The notes under the pieces: generated by a model
Told to the model about the DNA's origin: nothing
The model's input: only the letters and a program-made list of their open reading frames with translations
Database searches by the model: none
Assembly (NCBI GenBank): GCA_934098735.1
Contig: CAKOOS010000006.1
Location: 2,712-66,711 of the forward strand
Reading direction: 5' to 3'
Length of the DNA stretch: 64,000 bases
DNA from: an uncultured Bacilli bacterium
GTDB lineage: Bacteria; Bacillota_I; Bacilli_A; RF39; UBA660
Translations under genes and position numbers: made by a program
Shown: piece by piece, positions 23,760 to 64,000 of the stretch
Layout: every line of letters begins with the position of its first letter
Position numbering within the stretch: the stretch's first letter is position 1

Positions 23760-24520
23760 ATTTCAATTACATCCGTTCTTTCATTCTGTCTAGCACAAAT
23801 AATATCATCAAAATCTATTCCATATTCTTTAAATGTATCATGTATAGTATTTAAAGCTACTTCTTCCAAATTATTTGTTTCACTAAGATGGATTAAAACA
23901 ATCTTCTTAGTTTTATCTCCAATTAACTTTGTAAGATAAAAAGAAGCAGCTTTATTAGATAAATGTCCTTCATCTGATAATACTCTTTTTTTTAACCATG
24001 CTGGATATGGTCCATGTGTTAAAAGTTCAATGTCATGGTTACTTTCAAATAAATAAACATCAAGATTATTTAAATATTTAAAATTTTTAGAATTTATGTA
24101 TCCTGTGTCAGTTACATAACCAATCTTCTTATTTGCAAATTCAATAACAAAATTCCTAGAATCCGGAGCATCATGACTAGATTTAAAGGATTTAATCATT
24201 ATACCATCTAGATTTATTTCATCTTCAAGAACAATGATATGTTTATAATCCTTTACATCTTCAATTGAATAAAATAATTTTTGACTTACAACTAAAGCTG
24301 CTCCAGTTTTAGAAAGTAGGGTTTTTAAGGCCGTTGTATGATCACTATGATTATGACTTATTATCACATAATCTATATCCTTAATATTAACATCTATACT
24401 TTTTAAAGCTTCACTAATATATTTATAATTACGTCCTGCATCAAGTAAAAACTTTTTATTATTTGCCTCTAAAAACGTTACATTTCCTTTAGAGCCACTT
24501 GACAATACTGCTACTTTCAT
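23756..24520 (-). CDS. MBL-fold metallo-hydrolase (YycJ/WalJ-like)
   Basis: Start moved to ATG 24520 (MKVAVLSSGSKGNVTFLE...). HNHSDH zinc motif. Synteny with rlmH as in Bacillus yycJ-yydA. Confidence 0.8.
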   Translation of the reverse strand: MKVAVLSSGSKGNVTFLEANNKKFLLDAGRNYKYISEALKSIDVNIKDIDYVIISHNHSDHTTALKTLLSKTGAALVVSQKLFYSIEDVKDYKHIIVLEDEINLDGIMIKSFKSSHDAPDSRNFVIEFANKKIGYVTDTGYINSKNFKYLNNLDVYLFESNHDIELLTHGPYPAWLKKRVLSDEGHLSNKAASFYLTKLIGDKTKKIVLIHLSETNNLEEVALNTIHDTFKEYGIDFDDIICARQNERTDVIEI

Positions 24521-25992
24521 TATCGCAACCTTATATAATTTAATGGATTTTGGAAAGAATAGCTTCCATGGAATGGCCATCCGATAGAAACACCAAAATG
24601 CAAGTGAACTCCAAATGCTAAACCAGTTTCACCCATTTCTCCTATTTGCATTCCTTTAGTTACAGTTTGCCCCTCTTTTACTAATGCCTGATATAAATGA
24701 GCATATTGTGTATAAATATTATTATCATGTGCAATAATTATATAATTTCCATCTGTGCTACGATAGCTTACTTCAACAACAGTACCATCACCAACAGCAT
24801 AAACCGGTGATCTAAATCCTGTCCCAGAAATATCAATACCTGAATGCATTTTATGGCCACGCCATCCAAATGGACTAGTAAGCATAAACGGATAATTTGT
24901 TGGATAACCCCATCCAGTCGTAGCAACATAACTACCACTTACACCAGAATATCTTCTTCCAACAGTAACCTCTTGTTTAACCATTTCTCTAATAAGCTCA
25001 CTTTTTTCAGTCTTAACTTCACTTGAAGCATTACCATTAACAACTTCATAAGAATAATGAACAAGTGTAAGCTCATTAACTCCAGCTTTAGTAATTTCTT
25101 TATAAGTATAATCTTTCGTATTATCAACAACGGTTTCTGTTATAAATGGAGTTTCATTTTCATCTATTTTGTAAACATTATATGATAAGGTAACAACTGG
25201 ATTTATTAAAGTAACATTTACTGTACTTCCAACAGATAGCATAGCATTTTCACTTTTATACTTAGGATTAGCTATTAAAAATTCTTGAGAATTTATATGA
25301 TTATCTTCACTTATACTAGCTATAGTATCCCCAGTTTTAACGACATAAGTATCCATCTGTGCATCAGGACCAAATATTAAATATTGACTTAATGATTCAG
25401 CATCTTTATATATTTTATCATCAACACTTATATAACCCTCTTTAATAGTAATAGTTTCATCAAAATACATATTACTTATAACAGAACCTATTTCAGTAAT
25501 ACTTCTATTGCCTTTATTATATTCTTCTAACTGTTCTTCAGTAATAAATGATAATACAAATTTTCTTATTGCTTCATTAAATATTTCTTCATCCAAAACA
25601 TTTATAACAATATTTTCTTTAGTTTTATCATTAGGCTTTATCGTAACAATATACCCTTTAATAGTAAAATTATCAGCATTTTCTATTTTTTTATATATTT
25701 CATCTACACTCGTAAAATTATCATCAAACGTCTTAGTTTTAACAATATCTAAACCAGCAGGTGGATAAACATAACTAACATCATATTCATCTTTAATATT
25801 TTGTTGCTCATTATTAATTAAACTATAAAGTTCATCTTTATTTTTAATTAAACCAATTACTTTACCATCAAGATACACTTGAAAAGCATCTGTTGCATCA
25901 GTATAAGCATAAGAATAATTATTATTCAACAAATAAATTATTAGAATTGATACAGCAATTATAGCTGTTATTAATTTACCTTTATTATTCAT
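24520..25992 (-). CDS. M23-family peptidoglycan endopeptidase with a LysM domain
   Basis: N-terminal anchor, LysM (YVVKTGDTIASISEDNHINSQEFLIANP) and M23 motifs HSGIDISG and HLHFGV. Confidence 0.8.
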   Translation of the reverse strand: MNNKGKLITAIIAVSILIIYLLNNNYSYAYTDATDAFQVYLDGKVIGLIKNKDELYSLINNEQQNIKDEYDVSYVYPPAGLDIVKTKTFDDNFTSVDEIYKKIENADNFTIKGYIVTIKPNDKTKENIVINVLDEEIFNEAIRKFVLSFITEEQLEEYNKGNRSITEIGSVISNMYFDETITIKEGYISVDDKIYKDAESLSQYLIFGPDAQMDTYVVKTGDTIASISEDNHINSQEFLIANPKYKSENAMLSVGSTVNVTLINPVVTLSYNVYKIDENETPFITETVVDNTKDYTYKEITKAGVNELTLVHYSYEVVNGNASSEVKTEKSELIREMVKQEVTVGRRYSGVSGSYVATTGWGYPTNYPFMLTSPFGWRGHKMHSGIDISGTGFRSPVYAVGDGTVVEVSYRSTDGNYIIIAHDNNIYTQYAHLYQALVKEGQTVTKGMQIGEMGETGLAFGVHLHFGVSIGWPFHGSYSFQNPLNYIRLR

Positions 25993-60778: not shown

Positions 60779-61282
60779 TTATTTTTCATAAAAATCACTT
60801 AATGTATCTAAGTTTGTTTTTCTAAATTTATCTTCTTTTACTAATTTTAATATTTCCTCTTTTGAAAGGTATTCAACTTTTTCTACTTCATCTTCTTCTA
60901 TTTCAATTTTAGTCAAGTCGTAGTTTTTTCTAATATAAAAGACATCTTTAAATGCATTTTCATATTTATAAGTTTTAAATAATTTTATTTCATTAATATC
61001 AACATTAATATTCATTTCTTCTAATAATTCTTCTCGAATTGCTTCGTAACTATCTTGTCCACTTTTTACGTGCCCACCAGGTAAAGCCCATATTTCTTTT
61101 TTTCTAGTAGATGTTTTTTGGACTAAAATTTCATTATTATCGTTTTCTATTATTGCTAAAACAACTATAGTATACCTTCCTTCAGGCGTTATAGATTTTT
61201 CACCTTTCTTTCTAAAGATTTTTTCTCCTGTTAAATTTTTGTTTTCATCGTATAAATCAGTATATTCTCCCATATTTTCCAT
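60779..61282 (-). CDS. NUDIX hydrolase
   Basis: Nudix box GGHVKSGQDSYEAIREELLEEMNI. Confidence 0.85.
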   Translation of the reverse strand: MENMGEYTDLYDENKNLTGEKIFRKKGEKSITPEGRYTIVVLAIIENDNNEILVQKTSTRKKEIWALPGGHVKSGQDSYEAIREELLEEMNINVDINEIKLFKTYKYENAFKDVFYIRKNYDLTKIEIEEDEVEKVEYLSKEEILKLVKEDKFRKTNLDTLSDFYEK

Positions 61283-61467: not shown

Positions 61468-61541
61468 TGGCAGGGGCAGAGAGAATCGAACTCCCATCAA
61501 AAGTTTTGGAGACTCCTATGCTACCATTATACCATGCCCCT
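61468..61541 (-). tRNA. trnW: tRNA-Trp (anticodon CCA), CCA end encoded
   Basis: The reverse complement AGGGGCATGGTATAATGGTAGCATAGGAGTCTCCAAAACTTTTGATGGGAGTTCGATTCTCTCTGCCCCTGCCA folds by hand. Acceptor is AGGGGCA/UGCCCCU, anticodon stem GGAGU/ACUUU, loop CUCCAAA, with a GTTCGATTC T-loop. Confidence 0.9.
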
Positions 61542-61638
61542 ATAAATAACACGGACAACAAAATTATAACATAAGAAAAATTAAAAATCTACCCTTAACA
61601 TATTATAATCTTTTTCATAAATTATACTAGGTGATTTT

Positions 61639-62061
61639 ATGCTTATTAATTATACAGATAATGAACTAGAATTATTAGCACGAATAATGCGAGCTGAAGC
61701 CCTTGGAGAAGGAAATTTAGGTATGCTAATGGTAGGAAATGTAGTTGCAAACCGTGTTTTAGCAGATTGCTTAACTTTTAAAAATGTTAATAGTATTTCC
61801 GATGTTATATATCAGCCAAATCAATTCACTGGTGCTGATTCCTCACTTTTTAATGCATCAGCAACAACGCTGGAAAAACAATTAGCAGAAAGAATATTAC
61901 GAGGTGAATATTATTATCCAGCCACTAACGCTTTATGGTTTTATTCTCCAACTAGTAATAGTAGTTGTAAACAAACTTGGTATAATCAAGATTTAGCTGG
62001 AAGATACAAAAATCATTGTTTTTATAATCCAGATGCAGGAGTTTGCAAAAAAATTCACTAA
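61639..62061 (+). CDS. cwlJ: spore cortex-lytic enzyme CwlJ (SleB/Hydrolase_2 domain)
   Basis: 140 aa. ELLARIMRAEALGEGNLGMLMVGNVVANRV...IYQPNQF...WYNQ...KNHCFYNP is collinear with Bacillus CwlJ as I remember it. Confidence 0.85.
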   Translation: MLINYTDNELELLARIMRAEALGEGNLGMLMVGNVVANRVLADCLTFKNVNSISDVIYQPNQFTGADSSLFNASATTLEKQLAERILRGEYYYPATNALWFYSPTSNSSCKQTWYNQDLAGRYKNHCFYNPDAGVCKKIH

Positions 62062-62112: not shown

Positions 62113-62808
62113 ATGTTTTATACTAGTTTTATAATATTTATAATATATTCATTTTTTGGCTGGCTTATGGAAGTTACTTTAACTTTCATAAAAGAAAAAA
62201 AATTCGTTAACCGAGGCTTTTTAATTGGACCTTGTTGTCCTATATACGGATGCGGATGTCTTCTTTTAATATCCTTATTAGGTAAGTTTAAAGATAATAT
62301 AATTATTTTACTAATTCTTACCATTTTAATTTGTTCTATTTTAGAATACTTCACAAGTTGGATTTTAGAAAAAATATTTAAATTAAGATGGTGGGACTAC
62401 TCAAATCAAAAATTCAATATAAACGGAAGAATATGTTTAGAAACAATGACACCATTTACCATTATTGGAGTAGTTGTTGTTAAATACGTAAATCCAAAAT
62501 TGCTATTTTTAATTAAAAAAATACCAAATAATATAATAATAATTCTAGCAATAATTCTTTTCACACTTTTTATATTAGATTTAATAATTTCATGTAACAT
62601 AATAAACAATGTAAAATTTATTGCTGAAAACACCAAAAAAGATTCAACAGAAGACATAAAAAAAGCTGTATTTAAATTTATTCATAATAATCTATATGCT
62701 TATAAAAGAATATTTAAAGCATTTCCAGATATTACAAAAATAATAAAAGAAAAAACTATGCAAACCAGAGAATTTATTTCAAAACATACAAAAAGAAAGA
62801 GTAAATAA
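62113..62808 (+). CDS. DUF1113 / putative ABC-transporter type IV family membrane protein
   Basis: IIYSFFGWLMEV...KKFVNRGFLIGPCCPIYGCG signature. Confidence 0.65.
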   Translation: MFYTSFIIFIIYSFFGWLMEVTLTFIKEKKFVNRGFLIGPCCPIYGCGCLLLISLLGKFKDNIIILLILTILICSILEYFTSWILEKIFKLRWWDYSNQKFNINGRICLETMTPFTIIGVVVVKYVNPKLLFLIKKIPNNIIIILAIILFTLFILDLIISCNIINNVKFIAENTKKDSTEDIKKAVFKFIHNNLYAYKRIFKAFPDITKIIKEKTMQTREFISKHTKRKSK

Positions 62809-62873: not shown

Positions 62874-62910
62874 GCATAAAAAATGTAGACTGTTTTTTGA
62901 GTCTACATTT
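62874..62910 (-). terminator. terminator after the LysM gene (the hairpin could also serve the convergent plus-strand gene)
   Basis: 10-bp stem aaatgtagac/gtctacattt and a T-run on the minus strand. Confidence 0.65.
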
Positions 62911-62928
62911 AAGAAATACCCATAATTT

Positions 62929-63516
62929 TTATGGTAACAATAATTTTTGACCTATAGATAATGCTGTTGTTGATAAGTTATTTAATTTCATAATTGCATC
63001 AACCGTAGTTTTATATCGATTAGCAATGCTATACAAACTATCTCCTTTTTTAACAGTATAAACCTCATTTTCTTGACTACTATTTACATTAGGAATAACT
63101 AACTTTTGACCAATACTTAAAGTATTAGATTTTAAATTATTTTTATTTTTTAACTCATCTACAGAGACATTATAAGATTTAGCAATACTATATAAACTAT
63201 CTCCTTTTTTGACAATATAAATATTTTCTGTACTTTCGCTTTCTTGAGTTGGTACCTTTATTATTTGTCCAATTGCTAAGCTGTCTGTAACAATGTTGTT
63301 TATAGATTTTAAGTTATCAACACTAGTATTAAATTTTTTAGCTATAGCATATAGTGTATCACCAGATTTTACTACATATTCACCATAATCAGTTTCAGTT
63401 TCTTTTGCACCAGGAATTATAAGATTTTGACCTACACTTAACAAATTACTAGATAAATTATTTGCTTGCTTTAATTCTGCAACTGTAACACCAAGTTTTC
63501 TTGAAATACTCCACAA
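62929..63516 (-). CDS. C-terminal four-LysM-repeat module of a cell-wall-binding protein; appears to lack its 5' end
   Basis: Four LysM repeats (..GD(S/T)L(W/Y)(S/A)IA.K....V..L...N.L....L..GQ.L.IP). The track start is a TTG inside the first repeat. The in-frame sequence YIKIVSGDSL completes that repeat upstream (to 63543) but has no start codon and hits a stop at 63550-52. Confidence 0.6.
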   Translation of the reverse strand: MWSISRKLGVTVAELKQANNLSSNLLSVGQNLIIPGAKETETDYGEYVVKSGDTLYAIAKKFNTSVDNLKSINNIVTDSLAIGQIIKVPTQESESTENIYIVKKGDSLYSIAKSYNVSVDELKNKNNLKSNTLSIGQKLVIPNVNSSQENEVYTVKKGDSLYSIANRYKTTVDAIMKLNNLSTTALSIGQKLLLP

Positions 63517-63536
63517 ACTATCTCCAGATACAATTT

Positions 63537-64000
63537 TTATGTAACATTTTTAAATGTAAATATAATATCTACCTGTTTATCTTGATAGATATAAATTTTT
63601 TCAACTAAATTAATTATTAATTCTCTAGTTGGATTTTCAAGTGATAAAAATTCATTTATATATTTTTCTATTTGTTTGTTATCTATTTTATTTTCTTCTA
63701 TTTGTTCATTTTTAAGATTATCAATTTTCTTTTTATTATTATCTATTTCAGTTTTAATATTTTCACTTACTCTTAAGTATTGTTCTTCATCAATAATACC
63801 TTTTAATCTATCCATATATGTTTTATCTAGACTTTCAGTTAATTTATTATTTGTTATCTCTAAACTTTCAATTTGTTTTTTTATCTTTAAACTATTATCT
63901 TCAAACTTTATATTATTAATAGATTCTTTTATCTTGTTTTTATCTAAATACTTTTTACATACATCCCTTATATTATCTAAAATAACATTTTCTAATACTT
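63537..64000 (-). CDS. large serine recombinase, C-terminal part (5' end beyond the window)
   Basis: I checked that the frame stays open from 63815 to 64000. ...LENVILDNIRDVCKKYLDKNK...LTESLDKTYMDRLKGIIDEEQYLRVSENIKTE...PTRELIINLVEKIYIYQDKQVDIIFTFKN matches the coiled-coil plus DUF4368-type tail of TndX/SpoIVCA-like recombinases as I remember them. Confidence 0.65.
   Translation of the reverse strand, partial: VLENVILDNIRDVCKKYLDKNKIKESINNIKFEDNSLKIKKQIESLEITNNKLTESLDKTYMDRLKGIIDEEQYLRVSENIKTEIDNNKKKIDNLKNEQIEENKIDNKQIEKYINEFLSLENPTRELIINLVEKIYIYQDKQVDIIFTFKNVT

Follow-up and report, generated by a model that had tools for sequence, protein, structure and literature searches.

A LysM-repeat reading frame of an uncultured gut Bacilli genome as the probable tail of an amidase gene cut by serine-recombinase cassettes

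In this work, we analysed a 64,000-nt stretch of contig CAKOOS010000006.1 (hereafter the window) from an uncultured gut member of the Bacilli, with a GC content of ~27% and relatives that include "Firmicutes bacterium CAG:460" and Candidatus Onthocola. Close to its end, a minus-strand open reading frame (ORF) of 195 amino acids (aa) with a TTG start occupies positions 62929-63516, and a Pfam search found four LysM domains in it and nothing else (PF01476, E = 1.5e-69, four stretches). Upstream of the TTG, the frame remains open until a TAA at 63550-63552 and reads CYIKIVSGDSLW, and a second minus-strand frame, with its stop at 63537-63539, is open up to the window end. All of this agrees with a first-pass annotation made from the letters of the window, which took the second frame for a large serine recombinase (LSR) gene and proposed that an element extending past 64000 had split a wall-binding protein gene, whose 5' part should lie at the far end of that element.

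Contigs of the same species were retrieved from public assemblies through the neighbouring CmpB-like protein (62113-62808). Four states of the locus were seen among them, and the labels L001 and so on denote the loci fetched, 176 in all. Two contigs (L001 and L004) are free of elements and carry an uninterrupted 402-aa gene, with an Amidase_3 domain at residues 9-183, four LysM repeats at residues 198-402 (Pfam) and an N-terminus, MDERAVKKVVIDAGHGG, that leaves no space for a signal peptide. The window is collinear and identical with these alleles through 63525 and unrelated to them from 63526 onward, and because of this collinearity its LysM ORF corresponds to codons 205-402 of the amidase gene. 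From these alignments, the ORF is most probably the tail, or last third, of an N-acetylmuramoyl-L-alanine amidase gene and not an independent gene; having no signal peptide, the enzyme would be made in the cytoplasm. At least five independently assembled contigs (L002, L005, L006, L007 and L009) share the same junction, and 40 contigs have the exact 195-aa product on record, so an artefact of assembly can be dismissed.

That frequent product, together with a GGAG 5 nt upstream of the TTG, might also be taken as the mark of a stand-alone four-LysM gene that merely lies beside a recombinase gene, and the fragment may be translated from the recombinase transcript. Such a gene is contradicted by the element-free alleles, which in the same species are 402-aa amidases collinear with the ORF, and by the homology, which breaks exactly at the core of the attachment (att) site described below. 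Moreover, no form of the four-LysM gene without a recombinase was found, and the relatives that lack the recombinase carry the full amidase instead. We consider a stand-alone gene highly improbable.

The 5' portion of the amidase gene was found beyond position 64000. L002 and L005 match the window across the shared 1.9 kb (L005 exactly, L002 with a single mismatch, at 63822), and 3.68 kb past the junction they encode amidase codons 15 to ~204-209, which join the window fragment in frame. When the flanks are joined at the shared core, the resulting 402-aa ORF differs from that of L001 at 4 residues and from that of L004 at 3. The split gene foreseen in the first-pass annotation is there, with its 5' part at the far end of the element as proposed, but this 5' part proved to be itself truncated by another insertion. 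We refer to the insertion at the window end as element A and to the second one as element B.

Element A carries a 7-bp direct repeat, GGAGATA, at both ends, with a core-to-core distance of 3,681 bp. The second copy lies at 15088-15094 of L002, equivalent to window positions 67200-67206. One junction reads ...AAAAAAA-GGAGATA-CGATTTTTATGG... and the other ...TTGTATCT-GGAGATA-GTTTGTGG... The reconstructed attP is CATAAAAATTGTATCT-GG-AGATACGATTTTTATG, and around its central GG the two arms complement each other at 14 of 16 positions. This near-perfect palindrome has the anatomy expected of a serine-integrase site; the crossover takes place inside GGAGATA, probably at the leading GG. After excision, the predicted junction sequences are a rejoined attB, ...ACAGTAAAAAAAGGAGATAGTTTGTGGAG..., and a circular attP, ...AAAATTGTATCTGGAGATACGATTTTTATGG... 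The right-end arm of the element holds the recombinase stop codon and encodes YIKIVS in the host frame. The first-pass annotation had read YIKIVSGDSLW as the beginning of the first LysM repeat, which is wrong as to YIKIVS: since the uninterrupted allele has YYTVKKGDSLW at this point and host DNA stops at 63525, these residues are encoded by the element. They look like a LysM-like mimicry of the target, supplied by the element arm and not by the host gene.

The genes of element A are arranged as follows: two proteins of 380 and 67 aa, a ~450-nt non-coding leader, a 59-aa ORF that overlaps the start of the recombinase and the 521-aa recombinase itself, whose stop falls within the terminal arm. 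Every one of them is co-oriented with the host amidase gene. The full-length recombinase of L002 displays the motif YIRLSRDD and contains Resolvase, Recombinase and Zn_ribbon_recom domains (Pfam PF00239, E = 1.7e-22; PF07508, 5.5e-22; PF13408, 1.6e-10). Its domain order and att sites place it among the LSRs, in agreement with the first-pass assignment. The C-terminal 153 residues inside the window gave no Pfam match, and the DUF4368-like tail once described there was not detected by Pfam in this protein, being found instead in the recombinase of element B. The closest solved relative in the PDB is the TnpX catalytic domain of Tn4451 (E = 2.4e-28), and the best NCBIfam matches, CcrB and CcrC, are far under the family cut-offs. 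The 380-, 67- and 59-aa proteins had no match in Pfam, PHROGs or PADLOC, nor did the 380-aa protein in NCBIfam and the PDB; a Pfam search detected no relaxase in element A. Rfam gave no match over elements A and B, and a generic scan for sigma-70 promoters and terminators (47 matches vs 37 expected) was uninformative in DNA of 25% GC.

The other proposal of the first-pass annotation, the edge of a prophage with its integrase abutting the LysM gene, finds some echo in the match of the recombinase to a phage integrase family (PHROGs phrog_95, E = 1.3e-104) and in the BRO-N proteins of phage-like families that occur in element B and in a third element, C, described below. Nevertheless, the integrase is the sole phage-family match in the 3,681 bp and four ORFs of element A, with structural, lysis and replication families unmatched. 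A collection of 50,697 phage records gave neither a nucleotide match nor a close protein match, and all relatives of the recombinase in phage and plasmid collections are <40% identical. Additionally, complete relatives of element B hold a Mob_Pre relaxase, helix-turn-helix (HTH) regulators and an Mrr-type nuclease, and not virion genes. A prophage is refuted for element A by its mapped ends, and we give this explanation almost no weight.

The leader of element A is conserved (L002 13170-13625, window-equivalent ~65282-65737; aligned in 29 loci) and stands 5' of the 59-aa ORF. It contains a hairpin and T-run after the cargo genes, a TTGACT-N17-TAnnnT box and two short ORFs, each with a ribosome-binding site, and it may regulate the expression of the recombinase. 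A small ORF directly 5' of the recombinase is present in all three lineages of recombinases at this gene, with 59, 47-51 and 30 aa (L002 12990-13169 and 18246-18389; L003 15187-15279; L065 8129-8284). The N-termini are alike in A and B (MVKYKVNLKFK and MEVVYNVKYKFK) and match no family; the small ORF is a candidate directionality factor or regulator.

At element B, amidase homology stops at His15, within the zinc-binding motif DAG-H-GG; in its place are a BRO-N gene and a second recombinase (530 aa, 33% identical to that of element A, with DUF4368). Codons 1-14 and the promoter are thereby removed from the amidase fragment, and the gene is in three pieces. Relatives of the B recombinase (57-75% identical) were found directly 5' of amidase residues 13-15 onward in 9 species representatives, and eight further contigs break exactly at this point. 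Complete B-type elements, of ~9-9.6 kb, are present in L065 and L068, and from their ends the crossover maps to CA in the His codon. Besides the relaxase, the HTH regulators, the Mrr-type nuclease and the recombinase, the L065 element has a small ORF and encodes an HTH_36 replication-type protein; by its content it is an integrative mobilisable element. B-type recombinases show no co-divergence with their hosts (r = 0.37; some pairs share 98% identity in the recombinase vs 76-88% in the host), suggesting therefore horizontal spread, so that intact gene fragments cannot be read as a sign of long-term selection.

A further site, around codons 89-91 (the GGDG motif; site 2), is cut in other strains of the species of the window by a third recombinase (526 aa, 38% identical) and by other elements (L003, L010 and L008), and in other species by elements of at least two different arm types. 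Double interruptions by A and C occur in L111, L124, L128 and L138. In these other strains, the cargo of the C-type element (L003 16200-20696 and L010 6824-11320) consists mainly of defence genes. It encodes an EcoRI-type methylase, a protein of 1,066 aa that weakly matches SLFN/AlbA_2 and a GmrSD_N/HNH protein for which the match is to a model of type II restriction enzymes (E = 2.3e-91).

Interruption of this gene is the rule in the species. In its protein cluster (15 of 24 members listed), 73 contigs were counted, 11 of them with the 402-aa form, 43 with the 195-aa fragment and 19 with site-2 fragments, so that the gene is interrupted in ~85% (62/73). The look-up through the CmpB-like neighbour gave 15 interrupted contigs and 4 uninterrupted ones out of 19. 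The gene itself is conserved across >200 related genomes. Some contigs end where the elements do: L027, L028, L035, L038, L050, L051, L057 and L076 start 58-85 nt upstream of amidase residue 14-15, and L009 and L112 end at or near an element A junction. Such breaks are what a sample with both occupied and empty forms, or with several copies of the element, should give.

The recombinase of element A belongs to a large family, with >120 protein clusters at 85-94% identity, some of which have 600-900 member sequences. Many gut species have relatives of it, 78-96% identical, inserted where a LysM repeat begins. Other gut contigs gave 28 distinct junction sets, in all of which the right-end arm is kept; the element end, AATGTTACATAAAAATTGTATC(A/T), is joined there directly to GGNGAY... 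at the start of LysM repeat 1, 2, 3 or 4. Wherever both junctions were available, joining at the core left an open frame (17/17 loci). The host is the orthologous amidase in twelve of these 17 cases; LysM-only proteins, an M23-LysM peptidase and a GH25-LysM muramidase that has a signal peptide account for the rest. Since hosts belong to several gene types, the recombinase would recognise DNA coding for Y-x-V-K-x-G-D-S/T-L and not one particular gene. A motif scan of the window found four unoccupied attB-like sites against 0.01 expected, three of them in LysM repeats 2-4 of the fragment (Table 1). The fourth, GTTAAAACTGGGGATAC at 25325-25341 (-), falls within the only LysM repeat of ORF 24520-25992, a LysM + Peptidase_M23 gene; in L099 and L106, genes of the M23-LysM type are indeed occupied by relatives of element A.

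Table 1. Features around the interrupted amidase gene at the end of the window
Feature	Positions	Strand	Basis or remark
Amidase 3' segment, codons 205-402 + stop, four LysM repeats	62929..63525	-	collinear with L001/L004
7-bp core GGAGATA (gene strand), common to both element A junctions	63519..63525	-	recurs 3,681 bp on
Right-end arm of element A, gene strand ACATAAAAATTGTATCT	63526..63542	-	half of the palindromic attP (reconstructed)
Element A recombinase 3' end, last 153 codons + stop of 521	63537..64000	-	full-length protein in L002/L005
Unoccupied attB-like site, start of LysM repeat 2, GTAAAATCTGGTGATAC	63356..63372	-	motif scan
Unoccupied attB-like site, start of LysM repeat 3, GTCAAAAAAGGAGATAG	63197..63213	-	motif scan
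Unoccupied attB-like site, start of LysM repeat 4, GTTAAAAAAGGAGATAG	63038..63054	-	motif scan
Hairpin + T-run 3' of the amidase stop, between convergent genes (aatgtagact-caaaaaac-agtctacatt-tttttt); likely terminator of the amidase gene	62882..62909	-	read by eye

Conservation in the family is confined to the right-hand 2.2 kb, which comprise the leader, 59-aa ORF, recombinase and arm and show 82-92% nucleotide identity between hosts whose amidases are ~45-57% identical. Cargo is variable, as in L091 with a 363-aa protein and a DpnII-type restriction-modification system, and element sizes range from 3.2 to 8.6 kb. The family may thus be described as horizontally spreading cassettes with a fixed recombination module. 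A search for homologues of the LysM fragment was dominated by repeat-driven matches and returned many LysM-only products of 308-310 aa (e.g. P0124, P0133 and P0159), ~63% identical to the window fragment; judging by their length, they may be amidase fragments cut near codon 90.

Uninterrupted amidase alleles are preceded by a conserved AC-N16/17-CATANNNTA and then by an AGGTGAT ribosome-binding site. The first motif was found in 55 of 65 distinct upstream regions, vs 4.9% of 1,783 control ORFs. When the regions are aligned on the -10 box, CATAnnnTA is present in 62 of 65, a C at -17, within T(A/C)AC, is conserved in 94%, and a G at the TTGACA-equivalent position occurs in 2%. As a motif, it matches the published sigma-K consensus, with AC at -35 and CATATAAT at -10 (PMC3789822). 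Lysis of the mother cell in Bacillus subtilis is carried out by CwlC and CwlH, two amidases that depend on sigma-K/GerE (PMC517825, PMC3789822). The amidase of the window has the build of CwlC, with an N-terminal Amidase_3 domain, no signal peptide and C-terminal wall-binding repeats, here LysM. Given this architecture and the sigma-K-type promoter of uninterrupted alleles, we read it as a CwlC-like enzyme, most likely made in the mother cell. It was also compared with CwlD, which is ruled out (TIGR02883, 67 bits against a cut-off of 221).

A promoter of the same type stands elsewhere in the window, at 61598-61635 (+), 5' of a cwlJ/sleB-like gene (61639-62061): AC-N16-CATAAATTA (61598-61624), AGGTGAT and ATG. 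The two genes suggest a small regulon of spore-related wall hydrolases under a mother-cell sigma factor.

Based on our data, we put at roughly 0.9 the probability that the amidase gene has been cut at codon 204/205 by a 3,681-bp non-phage LSR cassette and cut again at His15 by element B. The recombinase of element A would recognise the DNA that codes for the start of a LysM repeat and exchange strands within GGAGATA, probably at its GG. The reverse reaction would precisely restore the amidase reading frame, as the in silico joining shows, and the cut of element B falls on the CA of codon His15, so that the gene lies in three pieces. Leaving timing aside, reversible insertion by an active TnpX-like recombinase seems to us much more probable than the excision timed to sporulation considered below.

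Several points weigh against this account. In L107, a GC-rich host, the two junctions have 13 bp in common, and this agrees less well with a crossover at GG. The presence of codons 1-14 and the promoter beyond element B in the strain of the window is deduced from L001, L065 and L068. The sigma-K assignment is read from a motif the spacing of which overlaps that of sigma-A promoters. In L126 (9001-10559), the recombinase is split into overlapping frames of residues 1-318 and 314-521, so either this copy is frameshifted and immobilised or the assembly is in error. An exact search for the attP joint found it neither in the fetched loci nor in IMG/VR.

The last two points would also suit an irreversible knockout, that is, a cassette that is an immobile remnant in an amidase pseudogene lying in pieces, tolerated through redundant lytic enzymes, and the frequency of interrupted forms is in line with it. 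If L126 is frameshifted, some copies are therefore decaying. In the strain of the window, however, element A has kept both att arms intact, as well as the ORFs of the recombinase and the 59-aa protein, and the 82-92% identity of the module between very different hosts implies recent mobility. Moreover, the 17 rejoined host genes hold no stop codon or frameshift, and gene and promoter are conserved across the clade. We therefore regard a dead insertion as unlikely, and retain that of a gene cut by a mobile cassette.

A skin-like switch would extend the reading of a gene cut twice by mobile elements: during sporulation, and only in the terminal mother cell, A and B would be cut out and the amidase gene rebuilt for expression from its sigma-K promoter, and the spore would keep the integrated copies. 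The conserved sigma-K-type promoter and CwlC-like build of the target point this way, as does the presence in the window of spo0A and of the cwlJ/sleB-type hydrolase gene with the same type of promoter. The gene is conserved in >200 genomes and yet mostly interrupted in this species, its rejoined fragments are all intact, and three LSR lineages converge on it. Precedents exist in skin/sigK, SPbeta/spsM, vfbin, vrin, gin/gerE and yin/yabG. We may also speculate that, the genes of element A being co-oriented with the amidase, the host promoter could, by read-through, lead to higher expression of the recombinase in the mother cell. On the other hand, the sigma-E and sigma-K motifs (ATA-N16-18-CATA and AC-N16/17-CATANNNTA) were found 5' of the small ORF and recombinase in none of 29 A, 8 B and 8 C loci, where sigma-A-like boxes stand instead, so that the control of the recombinase by a sporulation sigma factor known from skin was not seen. 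The A family also enters other LysM genes, including the GH25 muramidase with a signal peptide, and the hairpin and T-run after the cargo genes may block read-through. The elements move horizontally without host co-divergence, and intact fragments may be recent insertions; that this uncultured lineage sporulates is itself a deduction. A timed switch is possible, and we propose it tentatively, with the odds against it.

Some resemblance to known systems helps to place element A. The gin element in gerE of Bacillus cereus ATCC 10987 has 31 genes and is excised specifically during sporulation by GirC with the directionality factor GirX (Abe et al. 2017, PMC5595907). Like gin, element A is a non-phage serine-recombinase element within the coding sequence of what we take for a late mother-cell gene, with a short shared core in an imperfect inverted repeat (9 bp in gin, 7 bp here), restriction-modification cargo in family members and several recombinase genes at one locus. 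It differs in its size of 3.7 kb with four ORFs, in its target, an amidase entered at a repeated domain motif with several alternative sites, and in that excision has been demonstrated for gin, whereas element A had no sporulation-type promoter in our search.

With skin, SPbeta, vfbin (in spoVFB), vrin (in spoVR) and yin, element A shares an LSR gene by the att site, an interrupted ORF of probable sporulation function, a precise excision that would rebuild this ORF (in silico, as in the 17 related loci) and an interrupted form that is common in the population. Those elements, prophages or remnants of them that measure from several to well over 100 kb, have one site per gene and a known developmental control (SpoIVCA expression, or directionality factors under sigma-E/sigma-K), whereas here small cassettes or mobilisable elements use at least three sites in one gene.

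A different likeness is that to Tn4451/Tn4453. TnpX carries out both excision and insertion without a separate directionality factor, and a recombination of this kind is a plausible model for element A. Besides the relationship of the catalytic domains, the element end resembles the target in both cases, and B-type elements pair an LSR containing DUF4368 with Mob_Pre, as tnpX is paired with tnpZ. Element A differs in having no relaxase (Mob/Pre), in its recombinase, which is the last gene and reads outward, in its core GGAGATA with a GG centre and not GA, and in its target, a domain-coding motif and not loose sites; in L065, the B-type element has Mob_Pre and its crossover at CA.

Element A also recalls SCCmec, whose small LSR cassettes combine a conserved recombination module with variable cargo, lack their own transfer genes and form tandem or composite arrays at a single site of the chromosome. 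SCC elements insert at the 3' end of rlmH (orfX), which they do not disrupt, and use ccrAB pairs or ccrC, whereas element A disrupts its ORF and its recombinase is not a Ccr orthologue. As to the target, CwlC consists of an N-terminal Amidase_3 domain without a signal peptide and of C-terminal peptidoglycan-binding repeats of the SPOR type. The repeats are LysM in the amidase studied here, the function and regulation of which are read from sequence; its promoter motif would be of the sigma-K type shared by CwlC, CwlH and Clostridioides difficile CD1898 and CD2184.

A serine recombinase aimed at a repeated domain-coding motif, the start of the LysM repeat, would represent a new targeting strategy, with several sites per gene and a very wide host range. 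Such targeting would explain the hundreds to thousands of near-identical copies found in human-gut metagenomes. Six interrupted sporulation genes are known from the literature that we searched (sigK, spsM, spoVFB, spoVR, gerE and yabG), and the CwlC-like amidase would be the seventh, as a candidate affected in most contigs of one species by three recombinase lineages at three conserved motifs. One may go further and picture, in this clade of uncultured gut Bacilli with spo0A, a late-sporulation amidase gene at which at least three unrelated LSR lineages dock, one of them homing to LysM DNA, with the gene in two or three pieces in most genomes of the species and the pieces rejoined in the terminal mother cell, possibly via sigma-K read-through: a multi-element, multi-site switch of the skin/sigK type, made up of 3-10-kb defence-carrying cassettes. 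We would not bet on this scenario, to which we assign well under an even chance. The 195-, 261- and 306-314-aa "LysM proteins" listed for this clade in catalogues of gut metagenome-assembled genomes are likely gene fragments and not a protein family. The compact 2.2-kb module, with its well-defined attP and attB, could also interest developers of recombinase tools.

A last observation concerns the neighbourhood of the locus. A NUDIX hydrolase gene at 60779-61282 (-) adjoins tRNA-Trp (61468-61541, -) in the window and is also present in L001 and L005. It was not called in L002, L003, L004 and L006-L009, where the gap between a 415-aa gene and the hydrolase gene is too short for it, and it looks like a strain-variable insertion or deletion beside a tRNA gene.

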